A DNA stretch of 64,000 bases, taken from positions 14,596-78,595 of the forward strand of contig CAKOVU010000005.1 of assembly GCA_934122115.1 (NCBI GenBank), written 5' to 3'. The DNA comes from an uncultured Clostridia bacterium. Lineage in GTDB: Bacteria > Bacillota > Clostridia > TANB77 > CAG-508. A model generated the notes under the pieces. It did not search any database. It saw nothing but the letters and a program-made list of their open reading frames with translations, and was not told the DNA's origin. The position numbers and the translations under genes were made by a program. This document shows, piece by piece, positions 6,460 through 51,242 of the stretch (its first letter is position 1; each line of letters begins with the position of its first letter).

Positions 6460-7470
6460 ATGAAAAAAATTATTATTGGCATAATATGTGTGGTACTTAT
6501 AATAACAGGTATAGTAGTTTATATGGTAAACAGTAATAAAGGTGAAGAAGTAGCACGAACAAAGAAAATTCAATTAAACGAAGTAACACGTTCTGTATTT
6601 TATGCACCTCAATATTTAGCAATTGCAAACGGGTACTTTGCAGATGAAAACATGGAAATAGAAATTACAACAGGTCAAGGAGCAGATAAAGTAATGACTG
6701 CTATATTAGCAGGTCAAAGTGATATAGGTCTTTGTGGACCAGAAGCAGCTATATACGTGTATAATGAGGGAAAAGAAGATTATGTAGAAGTATTTGCACA
6801 ATTAACAAAAAGAGATGGATCATTTTTAGTAAGTAAAAACCCAACTGATAATTTTTCATGGAAAGATTTGATTGGAAAAACAGTAATACCAGGGAGAAAA
6901 GGCGGAGTGCCATACATGACTTTTGAATATGTGCTTAAACAAAATGGAATAAACCCACAAACAGATTTAGTTTTAGATGATAGCATTAAATTCGACTTGA
7001 TGGCAGGAGCTTTCACAGGAGGTACAGCAGAATATGTAACCCTATTTGAACCAACAGCATCAATGACAGAAGCAGCAGGAAAAGGCTATGTAGTAGCATC
7101 AGTAGGAAAAGAAGCTGGAGAAATACCATATACAGCATATTGTGCAAAGAAAAGTTATATACAAAACAATAAAGATACAGTGGAAGGATTTACTAGAGCT
7201 ATTTACAGAGGTCAAAAATGGGTAAAAGAGCATACTGCACAAGAAATAGCAGAAAAAATAAAAGATTTCTTCCCAAGCACAACTGTAGAAGCACTAGCAG
7301 AATCAGTTCAATCTTACAAAGATATAGATGCTTGGAATGAAACACCATATCTAAAAAAAGAAGCGCTTGATAAATTACAAGAAGTAATGAAAGAAGCAGG
7401 AGAACTAGAGAAAGAAGCGCCATATGAAAAAATAGTAAACAATTCTTTTGCAGAAAAAGTAACAAAATAA
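6460..7470 (+). CDS. ABC substrate-binding protein, NMT1/THI5-like
   Basis: N-terminal anchor, then an SBP fold typical of sulfonate/nitrate/HMP binders. Operon position supports the call. Confidence 0.75.
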   Translation: MKKIIIGIICVVLIITGIVVYMVNSNKGEEVARTKKIQLNEVTRSVFYAPQYLAIANGYFADENMEIEITTGQGADKVMTAILAGQSDIGLCGPEAAIYVYNEGKEDYVEVFAQLTKRDGSFLVSKNPTDNFSWKDLIGKTVIPGRKGGVPYMTFEYVLKQNGINPQTDLVLDDSIKFDLMAGAFTGGTAEYVTLFEPTASMTEAAGKGYVVASVGKEAGEIPYTAYCAKKSYIQNNKDTVEGFTRAIYRGQKWVKEHTAQEIAEKIKDFFPSTTVEALAESVQSYKDIDAWNETPYLKKEALDKLQEVMKEAGELEKEAPYEKIVNNSFAEKVTK

Positions 7471-7510: not shown

Positions 7511-7748
7511 ACCGCAATTTATTGCTTTTCGTATTGTAATTTATAACAAAATAAGATAAAATAAGCTAGATAATTTGTTATATGAAAAGAAATTAAATAA
7601 AAATAAATAAAATATAATAAAAATATATCACAAGATGTAAAAAACTTTTTTAAATTTTGTATTTAAAACGACAAATAAATTAAATCAAATGTATTAAAAT
7701 GTGAAGCAGTTTTAAAGAACAAAAGTAAAAAAGTAAGAGGTGGTAAGG

Positions 7749-10262
7749 ATGTTTCAAAATATATCAAAAAACACACAAGATGTTTTTGAAGAAGGAGTTG
7801 AATACACACAAGATAAAAAGGGTTTTGATAAGAGAGAATTTTTAAAAAGAACATTTAGTTTACAAAATTGCATAATATATGTGATTAGTTTTATGGTTGC
7901 AATGGCTGGAGGGGATTCAACATTGCTTACAATTGCACCATTTGGATTTGCAATGATTGCGGCAGCAGTTGGCGCAGAGGTGCCTGTAATGATGGTTTGT
8001 GTATCATCTTTATTAGGTGCAACAATAAAATTTGGTGGCAGTAGTTTATTAACATATTTATTTACAATATTAGTATTTTTAGCATGTATTCTTATAAAAA
8101 GGCCGGCTGAAGCAATGGAAGATTACGAGCTAAACGAGAAGAAAAAAGTTGGAGCTCATATCGCAATTTCTGTATTTATAGTACAAGCCGTTCAGATGCT
8201 ATTTAAAACATTTTATGTTTACGATTTGCTATACAGCATTATGCTTGCTATATCTACATTTATAATGTACAAAGTATTTGTGAATTCTTTGATTGTATTT
8301 AAAGAATTTACAGTAAAAAAAGTATTCTCAATAGAGGAAGTTATAGGAGCAAGTATACTTGCAATAATAGCAATAAGTGCATTTGGAAATTTAAGCATTC
8401 TAGGTTTTTCGATAAGAAATGTACTTAGCATATTGGTTGTTCTAGTATTAGGATGGAAAAACGGAATGCTAGTTGGAGCCACAGGCGGATTAACGGTAGG
8501 CCTTACACTAGGAATTATAATTGGTGAAAATCCAACATTTATTGCAGCATATGCGTTATCTGGATTGATAGCAGGAATATTAAATAAATTAGGAAAAGTT
8601 GGGGTAATATTTGGTTTCATAATAGGAAACATAATATTATCATACATATCAAACGGAAATACAATTGAAATAATAAGATTTCAAGAGATTCTAATAGCTT
8701 CACTTGGTTTACTAGCATTACCTAAAAACGTGGGAATAAAGGCATATAATTACAATGAGGATTACAAGTTATTGCCAGAAACTACAGGCAGAACTTTAGA
8801 AGAAAACAAAGAAACAATAAACAAATTAAATAATATGTCTGACACTATATCTCAAATTGCAAAGGAATATCAAACAGCAGCAACAGCAGCTGTTACAGCA
8901 GAAGAGGTTGAATCACAAGAAAAAATAAACCAAGATATTTTTGAAGATGAGTTAAGAAATAATTTAGAAGGACAAGAAGAAAACTTATTATACGATGACA
9001 TATACAATAACGAAAATAATGTATTATCAGATATTTTCGAAGTTTTGTTACAAAAAGAAGTTATAACAAGAAAAGATTTATTAAAAATATTTGCAAATCA
9101 TAACAGTTATATTATTGGCTATTCAAAAGATCAAGATAATGATGATTTTGCAGTAAAAACAGATATAGATTCAATAATAAGAATATTAAATTCATCTTAT
9201 AGGGTTAGCAAATTAAACTTTATATGGAAGAAAAAGTTAGAAGAAAATAGAAAAAATGTATCGACGCAATTATCTGGCGTGTCAGAAGCAATATCAAATT
9301 TAGCAGAGCAAATAAGTGTTGATAAAGAAAATCCATATGCAAAGCAAAAAGAAGAAATTAAGCTTTTATTAAAAGAAAAAGATATAATTTTAAAAGACAT
9401 AACTATTAAACAAGAAGAAAGCAAAAGATATATAATAAACTTATACACAAATGTGTGTGAAACTGTGGATGGTAAGCAGTGTATTTCAAAGAAAGTTGCA
9501 AGAATATTAAACAAAGTTATGAACGAAAAGATGGTATTACAAAAACAAAAATGTGGTTTAAGAGAAGATGACGACACATGCATGTTTATGTTTACATCAG
9601 AAGATAATTTTACAATGCAAGTTGGTATTGCAAAAACTAAAAAAGCTGGCTCAGTAATTTCTGGAGACACAACGATACAAACAAGACTAGAAGATGGTAA
9701 ATATTTGCTAGCCTTGAGTGATGGAATGGGATCTGGCCCAGAGGCTAGAAAAAGTAGCAAAATAGCAATAAAAATGCTGGAAAGATTGCTAGAAACAGGA
9801 TTTAACAAAGATGTAGCTTTAAAGCTAATTAATTCAATAATATCAAACAATACAGAAGAAGACATGTATGCAACTTTGGATGTTAGCATATTAGATTTAT
9901 ATAATGGAAAAATGGAATTCTTTAAGAATGGCGCTTGCCCAACTTACATAAAGAGGAATGGCAACACAGAAATACTGAAATCAATCTCATTACCAACAGG
10001 AATATTAAGCAATATAGATTTAGTAGAGTACGATTATGAGCTACAAGACGGTGACATAATTGTAATGTGCACTGATGGAGTAATTGAATCTAGCAATGAA
10101 TTTACAAATAAGGAATTATGGATTAAATACTTGCTAGAAGATTTAAGCACAGACGATGCACAAAGAATAGCCGACATAATTTTAAATGAATCTAGAGACA
10201 ACGATTATGGAAACGAAAAAGATGATATGAGCGTAATTGTATTTAGAGTGAATAAGAAATAA
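7749..10262 (+). CDS. spoIIE: Stage II sporulation protein E (PP2C phosphatase)
   Basis: About 10 N-terminal TM segments and a C-terminal PP2C domain (LALSDGMGSG ... CTDGV). ATG at 7749 lies 5 nt after GAGGTGG. Confidence 0.9.
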   Translation: MFQNISKNTQDVFEEGVEYTQDKKGFDKREFLKRTFSLQNCIIYVISFMVAMAGGDSTLLTIAPFGFAMIAAAVGAEVPVMMVCVSSLLGATIKFGGSSLLTYLFTILVFLACILIKRPAEAMEDYELNEKKKVGAHIAISVFIVQAVQMLFKTFYVYDLLYSIMLAISTFIMYKVFVNSLIVFKEFTVKKVFSIEEVIGASILAIIAISAFGNLSILGFSIRNVLSILVVLVLGWKNGMLVGATGGLTVGLTLGIIIGENPTFIAAYALSGLIAGILNKLGKVGVIFGFIIGNIILSYISNGNTIEIIRFQEILIASLGLLALPKNVGIKAYNYNEDYKLLPETTGRTLEENKETINKLNNMSDTISQIAKEYQTAATAAVTAEEVESQEKINQDIFEDELRNNLEGQEENLLYDDIYNNENNVLSDIFEVLLQKEVITRKDLLKIFANHNSYIIGYSKDQDNDDFAVKTDIDSIIRILNSSYRVSKLNFIWKKKLEENRKNVSTQLSGVSEAISNLAEQISVDKENPYAKQKEEIKLLLKEKDIILKDITIKQEESKRYIINLYTNVCETVDGKQCISKKVARILNKVMNEKMVLQKQKCGLREDDDTCMFMFTSEDNFTMQVGIAKTKKAGSVISGDTTIQTRLEDGKYLLALSDGMGSGPEARKSSKIAIKMLERLLETGFNKDVALKLINSIISNNTEEDMYATLDVSILDLYNGKMEFFKNGACPTYIKRNGNTEILKSISLPTGILSNIDLVEYDYELQDGDIIVMCTDGVIESSNEFTNKELWIKYLLEDLSTDDAQRIADIILNESRDNDYGNEKDDMSVIVFRVNKK

Positions 10263-10375: not shown

Positions 10376-11899
10376 ATGAGCAAAGGCAGAAGATATAATG
10401 GAGATAGTACTCATAAACTAAACATAAAAAAAGTAATTGCAACAATAATTGCAATATTGGTAATAATAATGTTTATTATTATTGTAGTTAAAGTTGTAAA
10501 TACAGATCAAAAAACGACAGGAAAAAATGTAACATTAGCATATTATACAACATATCAAGATGGAAAATGGGGAGTAATTGATTCAAAGGGGAAAGACATT
10601 ATAACTCCTGTATATGATGAAATAATTGTGATTCCAAATCAAGAAAAGGATGTATTTGTTGTTACTTATGATGTTGATTACGATAACGAAACTTATAAAT
10701 CAAAGGCAATAGATAAAAATGGAAAAACTTTGTTTTCAGAATACGAAAATGTAGAAGCAATACAAAATCAAGATTCACAAAATAGTGTATGGTATTCTAC
10801 AAGTTGCTTAAAAGTAGAAAAAGATGGCTTATACGGATTAATTGATTTTTCAGGAAAGCTATTATTAAGCTGCCAATATGATTCTATAGAACCACTATTA
10901 AATGTGAAAAATACATTAATTACAACTAAAGATAGCAAAAAAGGATTGGTAAGTGAAACTGGTACTGTAATAATAAATAATGAATATGAAGATATAACAT
11001 CATTAACTTCTCAATATGAGGATGGTTACATAGTAAAGAATTCTGAAGGAAAAGTTGGCGTAATTGGTACAAACAAAAAAACATTAGTGCCAGTAGAATA
11101 TGACAAAATTTTAAATGTAAAAGAAGAAAATACATATATCACAAAGAAAGAAAATAAATTAATGATATATGATTCAGAAAAAAATAGTGAGACACCAATA
11201 AGTTCAGATGATGTTACAAGTATAAATAACAACAAAATAATAGTAGAAAATAATGGAAAATTCGGAATAATAAATAATGCGGGGGAGACTGTATTAGAGC
11301 CTAAATACCAGAGCTTGGAATATGTTTTCTCAGATTATTACATTGCAAAAGAAAATGATAAATATGGGGTTATAAACTCACAAGGTGAAACAAAATTAGA
11401 TTTTAAATATGACTCTTTAACATACAGAAAAGATGCAGATTTTATAGAAGGAAATACATCAGAGAAAATAGATAGTGACATAATAAACAGAAATTTAGAA
11501 GTTAAAATATCAGGAATAATATCAGAAGTAAATGTAGATAAAGGATACATGAAAGTAAGGCAAGGAAACGAATATAAATACTATAATTTTAAATTTGAGG
11601 AAAAGAAAAATACTCAAATATTAACAAATAATACATTATTCTTATCAAAAAAAGACGGCAAATATGGATATGTAAATAAAGATGGAGTAGTTGTAGTAAA
11701 CTATATTTATGACGATGCTACAGAACAAAATGATTCTGGATATGCTGCAATAAAGAAAGACGGAAAATGGGGAGCAATAGATGAAAATGGCAATATTGTG
11801 GTAGAGCCGAGCTTAACACTAGATAATAATACGGTTATAAATTTCATTGGAACTTGGCATTTATCAGAAGATACAAACGCTAGATATTATACCAAATGA
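10376..11899 (+). CDS. Membrane-anchored WG-repeat (KWG) protein
   Basis: At least 8 copies of the D/NGKWG-x-I/V-D/N-x-x-G motif after one TM helix. Confidence 0.8.
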   Translation: MSKGRRYNGDSTHKLNIKKVIATIIAILVIIMFIIIVVKVVNTDQKTTGKNVTLAYYTTYQDGKWGVIDSKGKDIITPVYDEIIVIPNQEKDVFVVTYDVDYDNETYKSKAIDKNGKTLFSEYENVEAIQNQDSQNSVWYSTSCLKVEKDGLYGLIDFSGKLLLSCQYDSIEPLLNVKNTLITTKDSKKGLVSETGTVIINNEYEDITSLTSQYEDGYIVKNSEGKVGVIGTNKKTLVPVEYDKILNVKEENTYITKKENKLMIYDSEKNSETPISSDDVTSINNNKIIVENNGKFGIINNAGETVLEPKYQSLEYVFSDYYIAKENDKYGVINSQGETKLDFKYDSLTYRKDADFIEGNTSEKIDSDIINRNLEVKISGIISEVNVDKGYMKVRQGNEYKYYNFKFEEKKNTQILTNNTLFLSKKDGKYGYVNKDGVVVVNYIYDDATEQNDSGYAAIKKDGKWGAIDENGNIVVEPSLTLDNNTVINFIGTWHLSEDTNARYYTK

Positions 11900-11917
11900 T
11901 AAACAAAAGGAGAAAAA

Positions 11918-13147
11918 ATGGAAATAAAAACAAAATATCAATATACATATTTTATATACCCATATGTAGTAAATGAAAAAAAATATGATAAGTACTTGTT
12001 AAAACTTTTGCACAATAAAAATTGCGAGTTGAAAATGTTTGAACAAGAAAAAAATCTTGATTTATATACATATTTTTTACCTAAAATAAGAAATTATATG
12101 TTTTGGTCTTTTGATTTTAATAACAAAAAAATGAAACAATTGGAACAATTTGATGACAATATGAAATCTGTATTGCTAGCAAAATATCCATGTGTAATGT
12201 TTGAATATAAAATAAAAAAAGATATTCAAGGAAAAACAAAAAATGATGGAATATTTTTCAATATTAGAAAAATAGAAATAATTTGTTTCAATACAGGAAT
12301 ATGCTTTTTAAATATAAAAACCACTTTGGATGAAGATAGCACATTAGAAGATTTATGTAACTTTAATTATAAGTTTAGAAATATAAATTCCAGCATTGCA
12401 AAATTAAAAGAATATGAAAATATAAAAATTCAAACCGATGCGTATAAAAATATAAAAGGAATTTCCCAGCTAATAAAAGAAATAGCTGGAAATAATGCAG
12501 AAGCAAAGGAACTAAATATAGATATAGATAAATTTGTAATTTATTCATATGCATGTATAGGGCAAGAATGCTGGGAAAATAGCACAAATGTTGAACTGCT
12601 GGAAAAAGAATTATATAAATATTCAAATGTATACCCAGTGGATTATAATTCTAGTATTAATACAGATTTAATTTATGAATTAGAGCAAGGAAAACATACA
12701 AAATTCGCATTTAATAGCACATCTACAGTACTACTTACGTCAGATGCAAATACTGATAATTATACTAAATTACCACATATATATGAAACACAGTATTTGT
12801 ATAACTATATTTATGAATTGCACAAAAAAATATTTTTAAATAAGCTAGATAAAGAAGCAAAGAATTATAATAAATTCAATAATATAAAAGAGCAATTTAT
12901 ACAATTTGTGCAAAATGTGTGGATAGAAGAGACCACAAATAATAATATGGGGAATGAAATAACTAAATATTGGAAAAAAGCTTTAAAAACGGATAAGGTA
13001 TTTGAAAAAGTAAAGCAAAAATATGACATAATATACAAAAATGCAAATATAGAAAAAAGTGAAAAATCAAACAAGTGGATTATTATAAGTTTAATAGTAC
13101 TTGCACTAATAAATATAGCAAATTATATTTCTATATTACACAAATAA
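11918..13147 (+). CDS. Hypothetical protein with a single C-terminal TM helix
   Basis: 409 aa. RBS AAAGGAG. I did not recognise any family. Confidence 0.6.
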   Translation: MEIKTKYQYTYFIYPYVVNEKKYDKYLLKLLHNKNCELKMFEQEKNLDLYTYFLPKIRNYMFWSFDFNNKKMKQLEQFDDNMKSVLLAKYPCVMFEYKIKKDIQGKTKNDGIFFNIRKIEIICFNTGICFLNIKTTLDEDSTLEDLCNFNYKFRNINSSIAKLKEYENIKIQTDAYKNIKGISQLIKEIAGNNAEAKELNIDIDKFVIYSYACIGQECWENSTNVELLEKELYKYSNVYPVDYNSSINTDLIYELEQGKHTKFAFNSTSTVLLTSDANTDNYTKLPHIYETQYLYNYIYELHKKIFLNKLDKEAKNYNKFNNIKEQFIQFVQNVWIEETTNNNMGNEITKYWKKALKTDKVFEKVKQKYDIIYKNANIEKSEKSNKWIIISLIVLALINIANYISILHK

Positions 13148-13158
13148 AGGAGAGCACA

Positions 13159-13551
13159 ATGCAAATAAAAGTAGGTACTGATATTATAGAAGTAAGCAGA
13201 ATACAGGAATCAATAGAAAATTTAGGACAAAGTTTTCTAAATAAAATATACACAGAAGAAGAAATAAAATACTGCCAAGGTAAGAAAAAAGCGATGTATC
13301 AACACTTTGCTGCTAGGTTTGCTGCAAAAGAGGCAGCTTTTAAAGCAGTATCTACATTGCTAGATGATAAGTACAGCATATCTTGGAAAAATGCACAAAC
13401 GGTAGATGATGAAAATGGTAAGCCACACCTTGAGTTTGTGTCTTTAAGTAAAGATGTTGAAAAAATGCTAAAAAGAATAAGTAGCATAGATGTGAGTATA
13501 TCTCATTTAAAAGAATATGCTATTGCTACAGTAACAATATTAGTAGATTAG
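13159..13551 (+). CDS. acpS: Holo-[acyl-carrier-protein] synthase
   Basis: GTDIIEVSRI and FAAKEAAFKA motifs. ATG at 13159 follows AGGAG. The track's N-terminal extension overlaps the previous gene. Confidence 0.9.
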   Translation: MQIKVGTDIIEVSRIQESIENLGQSFLNKIYTEEEIKYCQGKKKAMYQHFAARFAAKEAAFKAVSTLLDDKYSISWKNAQTVDDENGKPHLEFVSLSKDVEKMLKRISSIDVSISHLKEYAIATVTILVD

Positions 13552-20943: not shown

Positions 20944-21093
20944 ATGCTTGACGAGAAAATTTGTAAATTAAGGGAAGAACTTAATAACAGCATACTAGAA
21001 AATAAAGACTATAAAATTATATACAAAATAAGCACAGACTTAGATGAACTAATTTACGAATATTATAAAAGCAAAAACATGATACATTGTTAA
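20944..21093 (+). CDS. Spo0E-like aspartyl-phosphate phosphatase (49 aa, missing from the ORF track)
   Basis: Hand-translated: MLDEKICKLREELNNSILENKDYKIIYKISTDLDELIYEYYKSKNMIHC. Helical hairpin with an S-x-x-LD-x-LI motif. RBS AAGGAGG. Confidence 0.6.
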   Translation: MLDEKICKLREELNNSILENKDYKIIYKISTDLDELIYEYYKSKNMIHC

Positions 21094-21116
21094 ATAAAGA
21101 AAAATTAGGAGAAAGA

Positions 21117-21503
21117 ATGAACAAAACAAAAATTAATAAAATTGGTAAAATAGTAATACCATTGTTGCTAATACTTCTTTCAGTAACAATGATAGCTAGC
21201 ACTTCAATGGCAGTAGATGATAGCGTTGTAAATACTGGAAAATATAATCCGAGTGCAAGCATTGGAGGAAATTCAAGCGAATTCAGAAGCCTAGTAGGAA
21301 ATATACTATTCTTCATTAGGCTAATAGGCTCAATAGTCTCTGTAGTAGCATTAATAGTAATAGGAATTAAGTTTATGCTAGGAGGCGTTGAACAAAAAGC
21401 AGAGTATAAAAAACGTATGCTCCCATATGTAGTAGGAATGATATTGCTTTTTGGTGGAGTAAATTTATTGTCTATAATATATGGTGTTGTAAGCAAAATG
21501 TAG
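21117..21503 (+). CDS. VirB2/TrbC-like pilin candidate, paralogue 1
   Basis: Signal peptide, TM1, charged loop (GIKFMLGGVEQKAEYKKRMLPY), TM2. ATG at 21117 follows AGGAGAA. Confidence 0.55.
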   Translation: MNKTKINKIGKIVIPLLLILLSVTMIASTSMAVDDSVVNTGKYNPSASIGGNSSEFRSLVGNILFFIRLIGSIVSVVALIVIGIKFMLGGVEQKAEYKKRMLPYVVGMILLFGGVNLLSIIYGVVSKM

Positions 21504-21570
21504 CATAAATGTTGAAAAAAGATAAAAAATGATGTATAATAAGATAAATATGTATTGTAAAGGAACAAAA

Positions 21571-22029
21571 ATGAAGAAAAAAACCATAGTAATATTATTT
21601 TTATTCACTATATTATTTTTACAAATGTTTTTGTGTGGAAATAATGTGGAGGCTAAAGAAGTAGATATAGATGAAGGCAAACCAAGTACAGCTGCTACTC
21701 CTTCAAAAGGAACATCTAGTTCCGTAACAGGTATTGATGGGGTAATAAATGGTGGAAAGGGTTTTTTGGATAGTGCAAATGGAATGCCAATAAGCGAACC
21801 TAACTTGCAATCTACGTCTAATACTTTAGTAAGTATATTAACTACTGTAGGTGTGGGTGCAGCAGTATTAGTAGTAACAATACTCGGAATAAAATACATA
21901 ACAGGAGCAGCTGCAGAACAGGCAGAGATAAAGCAGACATTAGTACCACTAATATTTGGATGCATACTAGTGTTTGGGGCTTATCTAATATGGAAAATAG
22001 TAGTATCAATAATACAAGGTGCTATGTAA
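21571..22029 (+). CDS. VirB2/TrbC-like pilin candidate, paralogue 2
   Basis: Same topology as paralogue 1. Loop GIKYITGAAAEQAEIKQTLVPL. Confidence 0.55.
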   Translation: MKKKTIVILFLFTILFLQMFLCGNNVEAKEVDIDEGKPSTAATPSKGTSSSVTGIDGVINGGKGFLDSANGMPISEPNLQSTSNTLVSILTTVGVGAAVLVVTILGIKYITGAAAEQAEIKQTLVPLIFGCILVFGAYLIWKIVVSIIQGAM

Positions 22030-22098
22030 ATTAGGTTTTAATATTCTCAGTTATGAGATTAATTATAAAAACAAATAAAAAAAAAGGAGGAACAAAAT

Positions 22099-22464
22099 AT
22101 GAAAAAAACAGTTAAAATAATAAGCACAATACTAATTGCATTATTTGTAGTTTGCGCTGTAGCTAATGTGGTATTAGCTGATGATGTTGATCCAAGTAAA
22201 TTTACAGGTTCTCAAGGAAATATGAATACAGATAATATCAATAAAGTTGGAAATCAAGTTATATATCTTATTAGATTAATAGGAACTATGATATCAGTTG
22301 GTGTATTAGTTATATTAGGTGTTAAATATATGACAGCTAGCCCAGAAGGAAAAGCAGATTTTAAATCAACAATGATACCATATTTAGTTGGTGCTGTTTT
22401 GGTGTTTGCTGCAACATGGGTAGCAAGTGCAATTTATGGTTTTGCAACAGGAATTGGAAAATAA
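22099..22464 (+). CDS. VirB2/TrbC-like pilin candidate, paralogue 3
   Basis: Same topology as paralogue 1. Loop GVKYMTASPEGKADFKSTMIPY. Strong RBS AAGGAGG. Confidence 0.55.
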   Translation: MKKTVKIISTILIALFVVCAVANVVLADDVDPSKFTGSQGNMNTDNINKVGNQVIYLIRLIGTMISVGVLVILGVKYMTASPEGKADFKSTMIPYLVGAVLVFAATWVASAIYGFATGIGK

Positions 22465-22504
22465 TAATATTACAACAAAATTACATAAAGATTACAATAA
22501 AATT

Positions 22505-22532
22505 AAAAAGTGCATTTATTTGCACTTTTTTT
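22505..22532 (+). terminator. Rho-independent terminator after the pilin-like genes
   Basis: AAAAAGTGCA / TGCACTTTTT stem followed by a long T-run. Confidence 0.75.
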
Positions 22533-22541
22533 ATTTTTTTG

Positions 22542-22570
22542 TTACTTTTTATAGCTTTATATGTTATAAT
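22542..22570 (+). promoter_or_regulatory. Candidate promoter for the T4SS machinery operon
   Basis: Extended -10 TGtTATAAT (22562-22570) with a weak -35 TTACTT. Confidence 0.4.
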
Positions 22571-22609
22571 TATTTATGATAGGATATTATGGGGTGTATT
22601 GGAGGAAGT

Positions 22610-22957
22610 ATGGGAGCATATAATTTACCAAGGAATGTAAAGGGTGAAGGAAGAATATTATTTATATTTACCAAAAAAAGTATGATATATACAGCTATAG
22701 CTGGAGTAATAGGAGTAGGGCTAGCATTTTTGCTCTCTACACTGGGAATGACGGTCGTAGGTATTGTATTACTTGTAATTTGTGCTTTAATAGGATTTTC
22801 AATAGGTACATTTAAAGTTCCAGATTTAAAAAATATTTCATGGGCAAGAGTAAATGCAGGCGAAAATATAGATGCTGTAATAATGAGAGCAATAAAGTTT
22901 AAACATAAGGGAAATAAAGTATATATATACAAGGAGGAAGAAACTGATGACAAGTAA
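22610..22957 (+). CDS. PrgI/ConD/VirB3-like small two-TM protein
   Basis: 115 aa with a two-TM hairpin, just upstream of VirB4 as in Gram-positive T4SSs. ATG at 22610 follows GGAGG. Confidence 0.55.
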   Translation: MGAYNLPRNVKGEGRILFIFTKKSMIYTAIAGVIGVGLAFLLSTLGMTVVGIVLLVICALIGFSIGTFKVPDLKNISWARVNAGENIDAVIMRAIKFKHKGNKVYIYKEEETDDK

Positions 22958-24164
22958 AATAACTATATTAACTTCAATTTTAACAGTGGTAGCTACTGTA
23001 ATAGTAATTTTGTTGATAGTATTAGCTTTTGTGTATTTTAGAATGGAAGCTAGGGATAAAAAAGGAAAAGATAGTAAGGAATTAAAAGACAGAGAAAATA
23101 CTCCTAAAAAACCAAGCAAAAATAAACAATATACTGTTGATTCAATAATGAATTTTATGGAATTCGATAAAATCGAAGATAATATGATTGTACAAAATAA
23201 TGGCAAGAAATATGTTATGGTTGTAGAATGCCAAGGAGTAAACTACGATTTAATGTCAGAAGAAGAAAAAGTTTCAGTAGAAGAAGGGTTTTTACAATTC
23301 TTAAATACATTAACAGGTCCTGTACAAATATATACACAAACCAGAACAATTAACATGAGTAGCAGTATACAGAGCTACAAAGAAAAGGTTGATGAAATAG
23401 AAGCTGCATATAATAAACAAAAAGCTAAATATGAAGAGCTAGTAAAACGTGGCAATGTGCCAAATGACCAATTGAAAAAAGAATATTATGAACTAGTAAA
23501 ACAAAGAAACTTATGTGAATATGGAAAAGATATTATATTTAATACAGAGAAAATGAGTTTAAACAGAAATATTTTAAACAAAAAATATTATGTAGCATTA
23601 GCATATTACACATCTGAGTTAGGACAAGAAAACTATGATAAAAATGAAATACAAGAATTAGTTTTCTCAGAGTTATATACAAAAGCTCAAGCAATAATAA
23701 GGTCGCTAGCAATATCTGGAGTAATTGGAAAAGTAATGTCTTCTATAGAATTGGCTGATTTACTATATGTTGCATATAACAGAGATGAATCAGAAACATA
23801 TGGAATGGATAGAGCATTAAAAGCTGGATATGATGAATTGTATTCTACAGCTCCTGATTACATGGATAAGAAAATTAAATTACTAAACGAAGAAATAGAA
23901 AATAAAGCTTATGAAAAAGCTAACGAGAAAGTAATCGAAGCCCAAACAGAAAAACAAAAACAATATAATCAAACAGTAGATGATATTGATACAATAATAG
24001 ATAATTTAGCAACATTAATGATAGATGAAAATGCAAGTATGATTGGTGAAGATGTGGCAGAGAGTGCAAGAGAAAAGATAAAAGAAGGAAACAAGAGAAA
24101 GGAGAAAGATAAAGATGTTCAAAAAGAAACAAAGAGAACAAGAAGAGTTTCAAGCAGAGCGTAA
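22947..24164 (+). CDS. Membrane-anchored protein resembling a VirB4 N-terminal (non-ATPase) domain plus coiled coil
   Basis: N-terminal TM helix. The segment KYVMVVECQGVNYDLMSEEEKVSVEEGFLQFLNTL..VQIYTQ follows the VirB4 N-domain pattern. No Walker motifs. Confidence 0.4.
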   Translation: MTSKITILTSILTVVATVIVILLIVLAFVYFRMEARDKKGKDSKELKDRENTPKKPSKNKQYTVDSIMNFMEFDKIEDNMIVQNNGKKYVMVVECQGVNYDLMSEEEKVSVEEGFLQFLNTLTGPVQIYTQTRTINMSSSIQSYKEKVDEIEAAYNKQKAKYEELVKRGNVPNDQLKKEYYELVKQRNLCEYGKDIIFNTEKMSLNRNILNKKYYVALAYYTSELGQENYDKNEIQELVFSELYTKAQAIIRSLAISGVIGKVMSSIELADLLYVAYNRDESETYGMDRALKAGYDELYSTAPDYMDKKIKLLNEEIENKAYEKANEKVIEAQTEKQKQYNQTVDDIDTIIDNLATLMIDENASMIGEDVAESAREKIKEGNKRKEKDKDVQKETKRTRRVSSRA

Positions 24165-26073
24165 TGATTATACAAGCAATGAAGAAGTAAGGATATTACA
24201 TAAAAAGACAATAAAAGAATTAATAGCTCCAGCAGGAATAGATGCAAGTAGTATAGATCACTTAGAAATAATTTCAAGTGTAAAAAGATATGCTAGAAGT
24301 TTCTTTGTATCTACATTGCCAAGAATGTGTACATTCCCAGAACTATTTAGAGATATGTATATGTTTGGAGATATAAATACATCAGTATATATAAATCCAA
24401 TACCAGAATCAAGGTCGCAAAATGAATTAAATAGAACAATAAATGAGATAGAAACAGAAAGAATCGTGGCAGCTGATAGAGGAAATATCAACAGAGAAAG
24501 CACATTAACTCAAAAAAGATTTGAAGCAGAGCAATTAAGAGATGAAATTGCAGCAGGATACAATAAATTATACGAAGCATCAGTTGTGGCAACACTTTTT
24601 GCATATAGCTTAGAAGATTTAGAGAGACTTACAAAATTATTATCAGCAGAAATGTCTAAATCACTAGTTGGAATAAAAAGCGCTTGGGGAAGACAAGAAG
24701 AAGCTTTTAAATCAAATTTGCCATTTGTAGATAATCAAATAAATAATACACACACATTCGACCGTAGATCTATGGGAACAGTATTCCCATTTACAACATC
24801 TGAAGTTGGACATCCAACAGGTATTCCTCTAGGATTTAATAAACAAACTGGGGTACCAATTTTGTTTGATAATTTCCATAACTCTTTAACAAACTATAAC
24901 ATGGTTATATTTGCTAAATCTGGTGCTGGTAAATCTGTAACAATGAAAACATTGATATCAAGATCAGCTGTGCTTATGGGAATCCAAAGTTTGGCACTAG
25001 ATGCTGAAGGCGAGTATAGTATAGTTGCTGAAAGCTTGGGAGGAGTAAATGTAGTACTTAGCCCAAATTCACAAACAGTTATCAACTTATTTGATATAGA
25101 AACAGAAATGGTTAAAGATGAAATAACAGGAAGAGAAAAAACTGTATTAAATGTAGAAAATAAAGTAGAGGACGTTACTCAAGCTTTATTAACAATGGCA
25201 AGAGGAAGTACAAGAAGCCAAGAGGTAAACGAGTTAACAAAACAGATAATTGCAGAATCTGTTGCGGAAGAATATGCTGCATATGGAATAAACAGCAATC
25301 CAGCAAGCTTATATGAAGCAAACATGGAAAATTCTTCCGATGTATTAGGAAAAAGAAGAAAGAAAATGCCAACAGTTGGCTCTTGGTATAAACGTTTAGC
25401 TAAAAAAGCTGAGGAAAACAATAACCCAGATTATAGATTTCATTATAGTTACTTGCTAAAAGTAATGAAGCAATACATAAGAGAATATGATGGACAGATG
25501 GCATACTTTGATGGACAATCAACATTTGATTTATTAGATGGAACATTATTTATAAACTTGGATATTTCTCAATTGGAGGAAAGATTTGCAAGACCACTTG
25601 CACAACAAATATTACTTTCTTGGATTTGGGAAAAATATGTTAAGAAAAATAGTGAAGATAGAAGAAAAGCTTATAAAAAGAGAGTTTTAGTAGACGAAGC
25701 GTGGATGCTTTTACCATATCCAGAAGCTGTAGACTTCTTAAACACAATGGCAAGACGTGCAAGAAAGAGAAACGTTTCTTTAGCTATTATTTCACAAAGA
25801 TTCCAAGATTTCTATGAAAAACCAGAAGTACAAGCTGTTTTAACATCATCTGATACAAAATTACTACTAGCGCAAGATAAATCTGAAATACAATATTTAA
25901 AAGAAGTATTTAAACTAAGCGAAGGAGAAGCCGGATTCTTAGTAACATGTGGAAGAGGAGAAGGCTTGCTAAAAGTAGGAGGAGATACAGCAATATTACA
26001 AATTACTCCAACTGCCAAGGAATTTGAATTCGTAGAGACAAACATAAATAAATTGGCACAAAAGAATCAATAA
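24115..26073 (+). CDS. VirB4-family T4SS ATPase (TcpF/ConE/PrgJ-like)
   Basis: Walker A KSGAGKSV and Walker B VLVDEAW. N-domain segment IAPAGID...RSFFVSTLPR. Overlaps the upstream ORF by 50 nt. Confidence 0.85.
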   Translation: MFKKKQREQEEFQAERNDYTSNEEVRILHKKTIKELIAPAGIDASSIDHLEIISSVKRYARSFFVSTLPRMCTFPELFRDMYMFGDINTSVYINPIPESRSQNELNRTINEIETERIVAADRGNINRESTLTQKRFEAEQLRDEIAAGYNKLYEASVVATLFAYSLEDLERLTKLLSAEMSKSLVGIKSAWGRQEEAFKSNLPFVDNQINNTHTFDRRSMGTVFPFTTSEVGHPTGIPLGFNKQTGVPILFDNFHNSLTNYNMVIFAKSGAGKSVTMKTLISRSAVLMGIQSLALDAEGEYSIVAESLGGVNVVLSPNSQTVINLFDIETEMVKDEITGREKTVLNVENKVEDVTQALLTMARGSTRSQEVNELTKQIIAESVAEEYAAYGINSNPASLYEANMENSSDVLGKRRKKMPTVGSWYKRLAKKAEENNNPDYRFHYSYLLKVMKQYIREYDGQMAYFDGQSTFDLLDGTLFINLDISQLEERFARPLAQQILLSWIWEKYVKKNSEDRRKAYKKRVLVDEAWMLLPYPEAVDFLNTMARRARKRNVSLAIISQRFQDFYEKPEVQAVLTSSDTKLLLAQDKSEIQYLKEVFKLSEGEAGFLVTCGRGEGLLKVGGDTAILQITPTAKEFEFVETNINKLAQKNQ

Positions 26074-26100
26074 ACAAAACGGACATTAAAAGGAGATAGT

Positions 26101-46013: not shown

Positions 46014-48323
46014 TTAGTCAACTTTAAAAATCAATTTTGGGTTATTTTTATCTAATTCTACAAAAACTTTTTGTCCATATTGTAATTCTGATCTTAATAG
46101 CATATCTGCTAATTCATCTTCAATATAGTGTTGTATAGCTCTTCTTAAAGGTCTAGCTCCATATTTTAAATCTGTTCCTTTTTCTAATAGATACTTTTTA
46201 GCTTCCTCAGATACAACTAATTGAATATTTTTATCATTTAGTACCGTTTGAGTATCAGAAAGCATTAAGCTAACTATCTGTAATAATTGTTCGTTTGTTA
46301 ATGGGTTAAACGCTACTATTTCATCAATTCTATTTAAGAATTCTGGTCTGAATATGTCTTTTAAAGCGTCAAGCATTTTGTTTTTTGAAGCTTCAGAATT
46401 ACCGAAACCAATTGAATTTGTATTTAAAGTAGAACCTGCATTAGATGTCATTATTATTATAGTATTTTCAAAGTTTACTACATTTCCCTGTGAATCTGTA
46501 AGCCTTCCATCATCAAGAACTTGTAATAATATATTGAATATATCTGGATGAGCTTTTTCTATTTCGTCGAAAAGTAGGATAGAATAAGGATTTCTCTTTA
46601 CTTTTTCTGTTAATTGACCAGCATCATCGTAACCAACATATCCTGGAGGTGCACCGATTAATTTTGCTGTAGAGTGACTTTCCATATATTCAGACATATC
46701 GAAGCGGATGATTGAGTTTTCATTTCCAAACATTTCAAATGCTAGTGCTTTTGAAAGCTCTGTTTTTCCGACACCTGTAGGACCAACGAATATAAATGAA
46801 GGTGGTCTTTTAGTGCTTTGAAGCCCAACTCTATTTCTTCTAATTGCCCTAGCTACTGCTGATACAGCTTCATCCTGACCAATTATTCTTTTATGAAGAT
46901 TACTTTCTAGGTTTATTAGCTTTTGAGTTTCTGCTTCTGTTATTTTATTAACTGGTATTTTGGTCCAGCTTTCGACAACATTTGCAATATCTTGTACAGT
47001 TAAAACACTTGGTTTCATTTCTTTCTTAATTTTGTCTATTTGTTCCAATAAAGAACATTCTTGGCTTTTTAGCTCTGCTGCTTTTTGATAATCTTCTGTT
47101 GAATCGGCTTGTGCAGCTTCTTCTTTCTGCTCTTGAACATCTTTTAATTTATTATTCAATACTTCTAAATCATACAATTTTTTATCACTTAGATTTATTT
47201 TTGAACAAGCCTCATCAAGGATATCAATAGCTTTATCTGGTAAAAATCTATCATGAATATATTTTTCAGACATATATACTATTTTTTCAATTATATCATT
47301 ATATATAATTACATGATGGTAGTCTTCATAATATTTCTTTATACCTTTTAAGATTAAAATAGAATCTTCAACAGTTGGCTCTTCTACTTTAATTGGCTGG
47401 AATCTTCTTTCTAAAGCTGAATCTTTTTCTATGTATTTTCTGTATTCCTTTAAAGTAGTAGTTCCGATTAATTGAATTTCACCATTTGAAAGAGATGGTT
47501 TTAAAATGTTGGCTGCATTCATAGAATGCTCTGCATCGCCTGCTCCAATTATATTGTGTATCTCATCAATTACTAAAATTATATTGCCGGCACTTTTACA
47601 TTCATCTATCAAAGCTTTCATTCTAGCTTCAAATTGACCTCTAAACTGAGTTCCTGCAATCATAGCTGTCATATCTAGTAAATATACTTCTTTGTTTAAT
47701 AATTTAGCTGGTACATTGCCATTTGCAATTCTTATTGCTAGACCTTGTGCAATAGCTGTTTTACCAACTCCAGGTTCACCAATTAAGCAAGGATTATTTT
47801 TAGAACGCCTATTTAAAATTTGTATCATTCTTTCAATTTCTTTATCTCTGCCGATTACTAAATCAAGTTGATTATTCTTAGCTTTGTAAGTTAAATTGGT
47901 TCCGTAAGTATCTAAAAAATTTCTCTTTTTATTCTTAGATTTACTTTTTTCTTTTACTTTTTGTGTATTATTTGAAGTATTAGTATTATCGGAACCGCCA
48001 AGGTTAAATATTCCAGAGAAAATTGACCCCAAAGGAATTCCATCTGGAGAATCAATTTCAGAACTTTCATTTATAACATTATTAAGTGCTTCATCTTCAT
48101 CAATATTTCCAGATAGATTAGAAAATAAGTTTTCTAATTGAGCAGTCATATTTGAGATATCTTTATCAGATAAATTAGCTTGTTTTGCTAAAGAATCTAT
48201 TGGATTTACTCCCATTTTTGAAGCACAACTATAGCAAAGCCCTTGCAATTCAGACTTATTATCTTGCCCTTGTTTATTTATAAAAATTACTGCAGTATTT
48301 TTCTTACATACTGAACATAACAT
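46014..48323 (-). CDS. clpE: Clp ATPase with N-terminal zinc ribbon (ClpE-type)
   Basis: N-terminal CxxC-x23-CxxC. Two AAA modules (GEPGVGKT and GPTGVGKT). IGF ClpP-docking loop. Confidence 0.75.
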   Translation of the reverse strand: MLCSVCKKNTAVIFINKQGQDNKSELQGLCYSCASKMGVNPIDSLAKQANLSDKDISNMTAQLENLFSNLSGNIDEDEALNNVINESSEIDSPDGIPLGSIFSGIFNLGGSDNTNTSNNTQKVKEKSKSKNKKRNFLDTYGTNLTYKAKNNQLDLVIGRDKEIERMIQILNRRSKNNPCLIGEPGVGKTAIAQGLAIRIANGNVPAKLLNKEVYLLDMTAMIAGTQFRGQFEARMKALIDECKSAGNIILVIDEIHNIIGAGDAEHSMNAANILKPSLSNGEIQLIGTTTLKEYRKYIEKDSALERRFQPIKVEEPTVEDSILILKGIKKYYEDYHHVIIYNDIIEKIVYMSEKYIHDRFLPDKAIDILDEACSKINLSDKKLYDLEVLNNKLKDVQEQKEEAAQADSTEDYQKAAELKSQECSLLEQIDKIKKEMKPSVLTVQDIANVVESWTKIPVNKITEAETQKLINLESNLHKRIIGQDEAVSAVARAIRRNRVGLQSTKRPPSFIFVGPTGVGKTELSKALAFEMFGNENSIIRFDMSEYMESHSTAKLIGAPPGYVGYDDAGQLTEKVKRNPYSILLFDEIEKAHPDIFNILLQVLDDGRLTDSQGNVVNFENTIIIMTSNAGSTLNTNSIGFGNSEASKNKMLDALKDIFRPEFLNRIDEIVAFNPLTNEQLLQIVSLMLSDTQTVLNDKNIQLVVSEEAKKYLLEKGTDLKYGARPLRRAIQHYIEDELADMLLRSELQYGQKVFVELDKNNPKLIFKVD

Positions 48324-48364
48324 AAATTTCTTACTCCTAACTTTTTGTATAAAATTACTTTTAT

Positions 48365-48393
48365 ATTCTACTATAAAATAGATAAATAGTCAA
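48365..48393 (-). promoter_or_regulatory. Candidate clpE promoter
   Basis: Minus strand: TTGACT, 17-nt spacer, TAGAAT. Confidence 0.45.
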
Positions 48394-48561
48394 TGAGGGG
48401 AGTTTGATACATTGGCTCCTGTAAGAATTGATATATTTGGCTTTAATGAGAGAATAAGTGAAAGAAATTATAAAGATGTAAAAATTTAATTGAGGATAAA
48501 AATTTGAATAAAATTGTAAATTTGCAGAATTATAATAAAATAATAAATAATGAAATAATAC

Positions 48562-48590
48562 TTGCAATGAATAAAACGAATTGTTATAAT
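48562..48590 (+). promoter_or_regulatory. Candidate fixed promoter outside the left inverted repeat
   Basis: TTGCAA, 17-nt spacer, TGtTATAAT. Confidence 0.4.
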
Positions 48591-48625
48591 AAAAGCAAAA
48601 TAAAAAATAACATAACGTTTTATTA

Positions 48626-48652
48626 TTTCCTTAAGTTATATACTTAACGAAG
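48626..48652. repeat. Left arm of a 27-nt inverted repeat (candidate inverton boundary)
   Basis: TTTCCTTAAGTTATATACTTAACGAAG matches the reverse complement of 48814-48840 at 26 of 27 positions. Confidence 0.8.
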
Positions 48653-48665
48653 CTATATATCGAAA

Positions 48666-48694
48666 ATTATATTACTAAAGTCCTTATATTTCAA
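48666..48694 (-). promoter_or_regulatory. Near-consensus promoter inside the repeat-flanked segment, currently pointing away from the downstream gene
   Basis: Minus strand: TTGAAA (48694-48689), 17-nt spacer, TATAAT (48671-48666). Confidence 0.5.
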
Positions 48695-48813
48695 GCAAAA
48701 ATCGAAAAAGTAATTTTTTCATTTTTACTTAATGAAAACACTTTTGAAAAAGTGCTAAATCTTTGGAAGTTAGTTGTTTCAAAAGCTAGGACAATATTTT
48801 TTTAGAAAATTTA

Positions 48814-48840
48814 CTTCGTTAAGTATATAACTTAAAGAAA
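48814..48840. repeat. Right arm of the 27-nt inverted repeat
   Basis: CTTCGTTAAGTATATAACTTAAAGAAA. 161 bp separate the two arms. The arm ends 54 nt before the ATG at 48895. Confidence 0.8.
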
Positions 48841-48894
48841 AGTGGAATAATAAAATAAATCCTAGAAACAAAGGAGAAAGAAAGGAGAAAATAT

Positions 48895-50187
48895 ATGGAA
48901 AAAGAAAAAAATAAAAAGTATGAGGGAGGTATAACATTAGTTGCTTTAGTAGTAACAATAGTCATATTATTAATTCTAGCAGGAGTAAGTTTGAATCTAG
49001 TAATAGGCAATGAAGGAATTTTAAAAAGAAGTAAAGAAGCAGCAGACAAATATGGAAAACAAGCAGAAAATGAGCAACAAGTATTAAATAATGTAGAAAA
49101 CTGGATGGATGAACAATTTGGCGGAATGCAGAAAGTAGCAGTAAATACAAAAGCCACAAAAAATGGAACGATAAACGGTAAAGAACCAAATATAAATAAT
49201 CCAATAATACCAAAAGGCTATACACCAATAAACGCAGGAAGTGCAACATGGGGAGATGGAAACAGTAGCCCAGCCCAAAGTTCAGTAGACAATGGATTGG
49301 TAATAAAAGATGATAATAATAATGAATGGGTGTGGATTCCAGTGGAAGCAAGTACATTATCAAGCATGTACGTAACTTCAAATGATGGAATAACAATATC
49401 AGGAGACGTTGGAGTAACAACAAAAATGTATACAAAAACAACAACGATAGGAAGAACTGGAGATATATACACTATATCAAGAGGTATACCCAATACAACA
49501 GATTATAGAGAGCCAGATTTAGTAGTGGGAAGTGATAGTACAAGTTACGATAAAAATGAGTCTTACTATAAAACGATATTAGGATATGATACTCCAAAAG
49601 CAATGGCAGAAGAATTTACAAATGATTATGCCAATATGATAGCAAGTATTCAAAAATATGGAGGATTTTATATAGGAAGGTATGAGCTTTCAAATGATGG
49701 TGTACAAAAGGGAAAAGCAACACTAACAAATACAAATTGGTACAATTTATATAAGAAATGCGCAACATTAAATGCAAGTGATAAAGTAGAAAGTAAAATG
49801 ATATGGGGAATACAGTGGGATTTAGTATGTGATTTCATTTCTAAAAAAGGAGAGCAAAAAAGTATAACAAATTCTACAACATGGGGAAATCATAGCAATA
49901 GCACCGGAAATGCAGCTGTAATGGACGGAATAACCCAAAAATACGGAAGTAAACAAGTAACAGGATATAGTGAATATTGGAAAGCAAATAATATATACGA
50001 TCTAGCTGGCAATTGCTATGAATGGACCCGAGAAGCGAACAGTACCGACGACCGTGCTTACAGAGGAGGCGGTTATAACTTCGATGGCTCGAGCAATCCA
50101 GCCTCTAGCCGTTACATCAGCAATGCGGACAGCAGCTACAGCAGCATACGGTTCTCGTCCCACTTTAATAATAAAGTAGCATTCTAG
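48895..50187 (+). CDS. Pseudopilin-like N-terminus fused to a formylglycine-generating-enzyme (SUMF1/FGE-sulfatase) type domain
   Basis: N-terminal segment KYEGG-ITLVALVVTIVILLILAGVSL. FGE-type motifs GGFYIGRYE, GNCYEWT and YRGGGY. Confidence 0.6.
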   Translation: MEKEKNKKYEGGITLVALVVTIVILLILAGVSLNLVIGNEGILKRSKEAADKYGKQAENEQQVLNNVENWMDEQFGGMQKVAVNTKATKNGTINGKEPNINNPIIPKGYTPINAGSATWGDGNSSPAQSSVDNGLVIKDDNNNEWVWIPVEASTLSSMYVTSNDGITISGDVGVTTKMYTKTTTIGRTGDIYTISRGIPNTTDYREPDLVVGSDSTSYDKNESYYKTILGYDTPKAMAEEFTNDYANMIASIQKYGGFYIGRYELSNDGVQKGKATLTNTNWYNLYKKCATLNASDKVESKMIWGIQWDLVCDFISKKGEQKSITNSTTWGNHSNSTGNAAVMDGITQKYGSKQVTGYSEYWKANNIYDLAGNCYEWTREANSTDDRAYRGGGYNFDGSSNPASSRYISNADSSYSSIRFSSHFNNKVAF

Positions 50188-50402: not shown

Positions 50403-51242
50403 ATGAAAGCAAGAAAATTAATATATATATCAATCTCGGTTATTTGTGCAGCTTGCATAATTATAGGAATATTTACACAAGTAAAAAAATCATTCAAACC
50501 AAGGAATGTAATTAATACAGAAAATATAATACAAACAGAAGAGAAAACAAATACATTAAAAACGGCTGAGGATATAAAAAAAGAATTTAATGATATATTT
50601 GATAATAAATTTCATATAGATAATTATGATTCAAGCAGTATAAATAAAATTGATAGCACAAAAGAAATTGTGTATACATTTTTTGAATTGCAAGAAACGA
50701 AAGAAAATTATGATATAAATATTGCGTTGCCAATGATAAATATAGCAGATAATGTGGCAAGTGATTTTAATACAAATACCCAAAATGTTTTTGCAAATAA
50801 AGCAAATGAAATATTTGAAAATGCTAAGGAAAATACAGTTTATACTATAGAATACACAGGCTATATAAATGGAGATATAATGTCTGTAATAATAAAATCA
50901 ACTCTGAAAGAAGCTTCAAATGCACAAAGAACAATTGTACAAACATACAATTATAATTTGAAAACAGGTAAAGAAGCAACAATAGAAGATGCAATAGAAC
51001 AAAGAGGAACCACAAAGGATGATGTAAGTAAAAAAATAAACAATCAAATAAATCAAGCAATAAAAGAAGCAAATGATATCCAAGTTTCTGGCTACGAAGT
51101 TTTTGCAAGAGACATAAATGATGAAAGATATAAAGTAGAAAATACAGATACTTTCTATATGGGTGAAGATGGAACTTTGTACATTATATACGCATATGGT
51201 AATAACGAATTTACATCTGAAATGGATATTATTGTAATATAA
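50403..51242 (+). CDS. Membrane-anchored protein resembling DUF4163/DUF3298 (RsiV/PdaC C-terminal-like)
   Basis: Single TM helix. Pattern similarity only. Confidence 0.45.
   Translation: MKARKLIYISISVICAACIIIGIFTQVKKSFKPRNVINTENIIQTEEKTNTLKTAEDIKKEFNDIFDNKFHIDNYDSSSINKIDSTKEIVYTFFELQETKENYDINIALPMINIADNVASDFNTNTQNVFANKANEIFENAKENTVYTIEYTGYINGDIMSVIIKSTLKEASNAQRTIVQTYNYNLKTGKEATIEDAIEQRGTTKDDVSKKINNQINQAIKEANDIQVSGYEVFARDINDERYKVENTDTFYMGEDGTLYIIYAYGNNEFTSEMDIIVI

Follow-up and report, generated by a model that had tools for sequence, protein, structure and literature searches.

An invertible segment with a predicted promoter upstream of a putative pilin-like gene in uncultured gut Clostridia is one copy of a multi-locus family

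The fimS switch of Escherichia coli comprises one locus with 9-bp repeats, next to which the FimB and FimE recombinases are encoded. The cwpV and flgB switches of Clostridioides difficile are regulated after initiation, from a promoter that lies upstream of the switch. Both belong to the RecV-dependent switches of this bacterium (cwpV is Cdi1 and flgB is Cdi4), the repeats of which are mostly unrelated to each other (PMC5903667). In Bacteroides fragilis, promoters of capsular polysaccharides form the invertons of the Mpi regulon, as cited in PMC5903667, and in Mycoplasma penetrans, most of the 38 mpl (P35) genes have an invertible promoter of their own, according to the account of Horino 2003 given in PMC2268961. 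Here we analyze a stretch of 64,000 nt from an uncultured Clostridia bacterium (assembly GCA_934122115.1, contig CAKOVU010000005.1, positions 14,596 to 78,595; hereafter, the window, whose coordinates are used throughout unless a contig is named), in which a 161-bp segment between inverted repeats precedes the gene for a 430-amino-acid (aa) protein. This segment is very probably a genuine promoter inverton that is OFF in the window, is flipped by a recombinase acting in trans and is part of a multi-locus module.

The mechanism appears to be that of a classical promoter inverton, and the genome-wide organization seems closest to that of M. penetrans mpl. In both cases, there are many paralogous genes, scattered or clustered, each with a short promoter segment flanked by inverted repeats that would switch independently, and the recombinases act, here presumably, in trans on many loci. 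The differences are in the host (spore-forming gut Clostridia), in the protein (a predicted pilin-like N-terminal helix as opposed to the mpl lipoproteins) and in the module, which has 27-bp repeats with a 10-7-10 palindromic core and, in close relatives, a terminator-like hairpin. The organization also resembles the Mpi regulon, as far as that system is outlined in the source cited above: a single repeat consensus at 10 or more promoter invertons, combinatorial variation of the surface in a gut commensal and a recombinase that is not linked to most of the sites. In that same outline, Mpi is a serine recombinase that acts on a different repeat consensus upstream of polysaccharide operons, whereas here the switches precede single protein genes and the 7-bp spacer of the site would point to a tyrosine recombinase. 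The likeness to the RecV-dependent switches consists in short invertible segments 5' of genes for surface structures in the class Clostridia and in an enzyme that is not local, RecV being a tyrosine recombinase encoded elsewhere in C. difficile; in contrast to the mostly unrelated C. difficile repeats, one core is found here at all sites. As in fimS, a promoter-bearing segment inverts and would turn a pilus-type gene ON or OFF; unlike at the single fimS locus with its adjacent recombinases, FimB and FimE queries found no relative in the open reading frames (ORFs) searched here. Full-text literature on the repeat sequence and on invertons in this lineage yielded nothing specific; such sites may be listed, without being described, in the large computational surveys of invertons that are available (PMC11602134).

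Repeats and orientations at the window locus

The left inverted repeat (IRL; TTTCCTTAAGTTATATACTTAACGAAG, 48626–48652, plus strand) and the right inverted repeat (IRR; CTTCGTTAAGTATATAACTTAAAGAAA, 48814–48840, minus strand) are complementary in 26 of 27 positions, a single mismatch separating IRR from the reverse complement of IRL, and bracket 161 bp (48653–48813), exactly as in a preliminary description of this DNA. Each arm is itself a near-palindrome, a property not remarked upon there: in nTTCnTTAAG-TTATATA-CTTAAnGAAn, 10-bp inverted half-sites surround an asymmetric 7-bp spacer. When up to three mismatches are allowed, the 24-nt core of the repeat occurs at two sites only in the 64-kb window, namely in the two arms, compared with an expectation of 0.00 from shuffles. 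A repeat finder stretches the pair of arms to 48 nt at 81% identity, but the added part is AT-rich and weak.

On the minus strand of the segment, a promoter scan recovered the sigma-70-type promoter TTGAAA-17-TATAAT that had been noted before (48666–48694, 11 of 12 positions matched). The controlled gene (48895–50187, plus strand) encodes 430 aa; the N-terminus, KYEGGITLVALVVTIVILLILAGVSLNLVIGNEGIL..., is conserved, and the C-terminal region is variable. It is preceded by a 5' leader (48841–48894, plus strand) that is kept in paralogous modules and contains the ribosome-binding site AAGGAG (48882–48887), 7 nt before the ATG. The left neighbor (46014–48323, minus strand), previously called clpE, indeed encodes a double-AAA+ Clp ATPase of the ClpB/ClpE type. 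With its predicted promoter directed away from the gene, the window copy appears to be OFF. In the flipped state, the -10 element would end at 48800, 94 nt before the ATG at 48895 (about 95 nt in the preliminary description), and natural flipped alleles agree with this distance.

These alleles were obtained by looking up the 430-aa protein by exact sequence, which identified four independent metagenome contigs (L041–L044); the comparison of orientations is thus one between assembled contigs from different samples and studies. All four share the gene order clp, switch, gene, 279-aa ORF and topoisomerase. In L041 (ERZ28615210), the 161 bp are in the forward orientation, and the contig is identical to the window over 7,293 nt without any flipping. 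In the other three contigs, the 161 bp are present as the exact reverse complement at the same offset; after the segment is flipped back, L042 (ERZ28614928) differs from the window at 2 of 7,293 positions, L043 (ERZ4566954, from a Hadza sample) at 1 of 7,293, and L044 (ERZ27287073) at 70 of 6,138. The sole mismatch between the arms (position 5; C in the left arm and T in the right arm) remains with the flanks when the interior flips. Both orientations of the window switch, forward in L041 and the window and reversed in L042–L044, occur in essentially one strain, with nearly identical genomes from different metagenomes holding the locus either way, as the earlier reading of this element as an inverton implied. 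The C/T difference at position 5 is also found in UMGS484, on the opposite arms (48630 and 48836 in the window; 262 and 474 in L001), with the interiors in the same orientation.

Inversion is also traced at paralogous and orthologous switches. In a related species, the interior of the switch that precedes a 431-aa paralogue is reversed in L029/L035 relative to L030–L036 (217 bp, 97% identical in reverse); the polymorphic inner arm positions 23 and 27 have changed sides together with the interior, unlike the outer position 5, which remains with the flank. The strand exchange therefore occurred within arm positions 6–22, that is, within TTAAG-N7-CTTAA. In L011, both flanks are on one strand and the interior is on the opposite strand; the upstream flank of L011 is 99% identical to that of L005, the interior of which has the window orientation, and the L011 interior is reversed compared with L005, L020 and L025.

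A static inverted repeat that never inverts (an RNA stem, a pair of operators for a looping repressor or a relic), with the opposite orientations arising as assembly artefacts, is an extremely improbable explanation of these data. Such a repeat would fit the palindromic character of each arm, as operators are often palindromic, and the lack of a recombinase nearby. However, three independent assemblies from different studies contain the exact reverse complement between virtually identical flanks, and the polymorphisms of the inner arms accompany the interior when it flips, which is what strand exchange would predict. Judging from contig names (k141_..., for example), the final assembly k-mers (55–141) were longer than the 27-nt repeat, and therefore the junctions in L041–L044 are likely to be read-supported. 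The RNA stem version of this explanation would also have to account for the result of an Rfam scan of 48200–49100 in E-value mode, in which no RNA family matched; a riboswitch or leader RNA was rejected on the same result.

The promoter, the left-flank hairpin and the recombinase

In an alignment of 24 modules and a census of 39 complete ones, the repeat core is present in 39 of 39, and the promoter TTGAAA-17 nt-TA...T is the sole conserved feature of the interior. In nearly all of the 39 modules, it lies towards one end of the interior, approximately 13–20 nt from one repeat; these include the modules of the distant metagenome-assembled genome (MAG) CAMJYG01 that lack the left-flank sequence described below. 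The -35 element is TTGACA in CAMJYG01, and the -10 element is TATAAT in most close relatives. The hexamers are conserved and the sequence of the 17-nt spacer is variable, which is the pattern expected of a real promoter. This promoter points towards the gene in 8 modules and away from it in 26, with 5 being ambiguous. An apparent locked-ON relic, identical in 10 contigs (L029–L038, at ~9860–9950; for example, 9878–9945 in L031), is found upstream of the P0039 gene: TTGAAG-17-TATAAT faces the gene beside a degenerate right repeat, GTTAAGTATATAACCTAGCG, and there is neither a left repeat nor a left flank. The predicted promoter thus appears to be the conserved payload of the switch and lies inside it, whereas that of cwpV and flgB lies outside.

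We envisage that a recombinase encoded elsewhere exchanges strands in TTAAG-TTATATA-CTTAA of both 27-bp repeats, so that the 161 bp would flip together with what looks like a strong sigma-70-type promoter. In the ON state, transcription from the promoter would pass through the right repeat and the leader before it enters the gene; for the flipped alleles, the predicted transcript starts just before the right repeat, crosses it and reaches the AAGGAG site. In the OFF state, the promoter would fire leftwards, the hairpin and T-run of the left flank would stop the transcript after roughly 90 nt, and the pilin-like gene would be left without a promoter of its own. The order of elements in the repeated module would be terminator, repeat, promoter, repeat, leader and conserved N-terminus. 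With many paralogous genes in one genome each preceded by such a module, a clonal population would display different combinations of proteins.

The putative terminator in this scheme lies in the left flank (48532–48625), the ~94 nt of which are conserved as a part of the module beside paralogous switches in close relatives. The hairpin (arms 48570–48587 and 48607–48624) lies between an A-tract (5') and a T-tract (3'), which makes it terminator-like on both strands; it folds with -10 and -11 kcal/mol on the two strands (z = -2.3 and -2.6). Among 13 variants of the stem, 4 of the 15 pairs are changed on both sides, and the covariation score exceeds those of 500 of 500 shuffles and of all slid registers. 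The hairpin probably functions as a bidirectional intrinsic terminator, which would both shield the gene from upstream read-through and halt the leftward transcript of the OFF state. The left-flank module is missing from the CAMJYG01 switches, L012b, L019 and L003/L008, which keep the repeats and the internal promoter. In the L012 module at 6761–6963, the left flank keeps a perfect 11-bp terminator hairpin without the -35 of the outer promoter-like sequence described below; the 7-bp spacer of this module is reversed relative to the flank and the interior (TTAAG-TATACAA-CTTAA in both arms), and the repeats still form an inverted pair with an internal promoter.

The preliminary description had placed a terminator for the minus strand inside the segment itself (a hairpin with a T-run, 48731–48754). 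This candidate was rejected: the terminator scan of the window region reported no terminator-like site and did not pick up the hairpin, the folding is no better than that of shuffled sequence (z = -1.07), and the hairpin is not conserved in diverged paralogous switches.

Two points count against this promoter inverton model. The first is that no recombinase was found in the window, as noted previously, or in ~0.5 Mb of related loci. Regular expressions for tyrosine and serine recombinase motifs matched none of the ORFs of the window and the loci; phmmer searches with E. coli FimB, FimE and PinE against 949 ORFs, and subsequently against more, also detected none, the single weak match being a polysaccharide deacetylase; and neither Pfam searches with 40 window proteins nor precomputed Pfam annotations of 13 neighborhoods included a recombinase. 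The second point is the upstream sequence TTGCAA-17-TGTTATAAT, the -35 and -10 elements of which hardly vary in 12 of the 13 left flanks from close relatives; activity of this sequence could mean that the gene is expressed at a low level in the window orientation instead of being fully OFF.

As to the enzyme, core sites of tyrosine recombinases have a 6–8-bp overlap region, and sites of serine invertases have a central dinucleotide. Since the 10-7-10 site has an asymmetric spacer of odd length, which fits a 6–8-bp overlap better, a tyrosine recombinase is slightly favored. Because no recombinase gene was found in the window or the related loci, the enzyme presumably acts in trans, as do Mpi of Bacteroides and RecV of C. 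difficile (PMC5903667).

The second point would be expected under a switch of the cwpV/flgB type, in which the upstream promoter (48562–48590) drives the gene and the segment acts after initiation, as a terminator or leader RNA structure whose effect depends on orientation. We consider this an improbable arrangement. The plus-strand promoter of the preliminary description was indeed found by the scan (TTGCAA at 48562–48567, a 17-nt spacer and TGtTATAAT ending at 48590), with 10 of 12 matches and an extended -10, and a transcript initiated there would begin in the loop of the left-flank hairpin and so escape the terminator. However, the sequence overlaps the 5' arm of the covarying hairpin, which explains a part of the -10 conservation, and the locked-ON relic retains the internal promoter and not the fixed one. 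An internal terminator of the cwpV/flgB type is represented only by the non-significant and unconserved hairpin rejected above. Because the left-flank module, the outer promoter included, is absent from distant switches that retain the repeats and the internal promoter, this fixed promoter does not seem to be a core part of the mechanism.

The module in other loci and genomes

A metagenome scan with the 22-mer TTAAGTTATATACTTAACGAAG returned 27 human-gut contigs, often several per sample. In every contig with enough sequence, an inverted partner is located 185–197 bp away, and on one side of each pair, a leader of 54–66 nt is followed by a gene with a product of the form ...K(G)GITLVALVVTIVVLLILAGVSLNLVIGNEGILTRSKE... 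that is divergent afterwards; complete products consist of 207 to 648 aa. Two modules lie in tandem on some contigs (L020 and L012). In species-representative genomes, a two-armed pattern scan identified 10 pairs in MAG CAMJYG01 ('uncultured Clostridium sp.'), where the site is a perfect 10-7-10 palindrome, TATCTTTAAG-ATATATA-CTTAAAGATA, 3 pairs in CAKPDZ01 and 1 pair each in CAKPHD01 and UMGS484; four switches are present on one 342-kb scaffold. The common core of the repeats, paired upstream of paralogous genes, is TTAAG-N7-CTTAA within palindromic arms of 10–11 bp, and wherever a gene could be identified after a module, its product has the N-terminus ...GITLVALVVT.... With its repeat core conserved and at least 10 pairs in a single assembled genome, the window switch, for which the preliminary description had suggested a search for other copies, is one copy of a multi-locus family and not a lone element.

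Transposases are found inside and between modules. In L030 (6320–8206), UPF0236 genes are located between a switch and its gene, and in L060/L061, which derive from the 342-kb scaffold, a fragmented Transposase_mut gene of the IS256 type (11419–13523) lies between two convergent family genes.

Beyond the close relatives, only 1 of 80 distant homologue loci is preceded by a TTAAG-N7-CTTAA pair, and a generic repeat search found upstream inverted repeats at 10 of 46 loci of the wider family, compared with 0 of 46 coding controls; the switch therefore appears to be restricted to a lineage within the protein family. Some loci of the wider family have the variant core TTAAAT-ATATA-ATTTAA. In L064, L065 and L068 (MAGs CAVFFR01 and CAKPGM01), inverted repeats of 23–29 nt with the core ATTAAAT-ATATA-ATTTAAT surround 125–128 bp upstream of family genes. 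These repeats look like a diverged version of the switch, which suggests co-evolution of the site and the recombinase.

Several junctions raise the possibility that the modules recombine with one another as well, in which case large inversions would bring flanks, promoters and genes into new combinations, as in a shufflon or in Mycoplasma vsa/vpma. Such recombination would be an additional function of the inverton and would not compete with it; we regard it as rather unlikely. The same downstream genes (the 431-aa paralogue, P0039 and dnaE) are present on three upstream contexts that break at the left repeat (L029/L035, L030–L036 and L037; ~7600–8400), and the left flank of L029/L035, where the interior is flipped, derives from a different module. 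In L022 and L024, the gene flank of a different paralogue is joined to an interior of the main type. At the end of L005 (4804–4867), an interior and a repeat are fused to the clpE-side left flank in reverse-complement orientation, with 100% identity to the window over 37 nt; however, these 37 nt of evidence come from the end of a contig with 1.6x coverage. Ordinary rearrangement between strains, divergence of paralogues or low-coverage chimeras could also explain these joins, and no reciprocal junction was recovered.

The controlled protein family and other genes of the window

The 430-aa protein has no Pfam match at the default threshold, and its N_methyl match is below threshold (16.4 bits compared with the cut-off of 21.2). 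Among 27 family members scanned, 26 show a weak N_methyl match (best E = 0.0031) and 16 a weak FGE-sulfatase match (best E = 7e-4). The NCBIfam matches are all sub-threshold, with one paralogue reaching 17.7 bits for GspG, far from the required 88.85. The canonical motif of type IV pilins includes a Glu at position +5 after the cleaved Gly; this Glu is absent here, the sequence being G-ITLVAL, with Ala at +5. The AlphaFold2 model of the 430-aa protein is unusable (mean predicted local distance difference test score, pLDDT, 32), and a profile search against PDB sequences yielded nothing. The product is probably a pilin-like, N-terminally anchored protein with a lectin-type domain, and would accordingly be a candidate for display on the cell surface.

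The family is very large, with 6,553 database matches among 8,000 scored candidates, nearly all of them unnamed, and at least 543 loci in species-representative genomes. Nearly all of the 80 loci listed come from gut MAGs (human, Hadza, chicken and rabbit) of uncultured Clostridia or Clostridium sp., among them Clostridium sp. CAG:780 and CAG:273; the same 80 include one MAG labeled Bacillota and one isolate labeled Bacteroidaceae. One homologue is labeled Christensenellales by NCBI, and the 'Tenericutes' label of UMGS484 is probably a misnomer. The neighboring genes include SpoIID, SpoIIR, the sigF operon, SpoIIGA and sigE, and therefore these bacteria appear to be spore-formers.

We tentatively propose, with somewhat less confidence than the tyrosine class of the enzyme, genome-wide combinatorial phase variation in abundant uncultured Clostridia of human and animal guts, whereby at least 10 per-gene invertons with one 10-7-10 core and a single trans-acting, probably tyrosine, recombinase would control members of a family of more than 6,500 pilin-like, lectin-type (FGE-sulfatase-like) proteins, and inter-locus reshuffling may occur in addition. 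These widespread gut Clostridia would then share a population strategy with Bacteroides and mycoplasmas, namely, many independently flipping promoters before a variable protein family. What makes the system valuable is that one site is shared by its switches, that the controlled family is large and that ON, OFF and locked alleles occur naturally: together, the defined recombination site, the ON, OFF and locked-ON alleles and the candidate adhesins would make it directly testable. The shared site provides a handle for finding the cognate recombinase through phylogenetic co-occurrence, and metagenomes that already exist could be used to relate the orientation states to, for instance, host, diet or phage pressure.

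Directly 3' of the controlled gene, the window contains the 279-aa ORF (50403–51242, plus strand), which has no significant family match; it is kept at loci of the window type and was not found beside other modules. Farther upstream, at 21087–34682 (plus strand), lies a gene block resembling a conjugative type IV secretion system of the kind found in integrative and conjugative elements; Pfam scans of the window proteins detected neither an integrase nor a relaxase. The block encodes an ATPase of the VirB4/TraG P-loop type (24115–26073; PF19044, E = 1.8e-16), several small membrane proteins, an 805-aa polytopic membrane protein and large proteins without a Pfam match.

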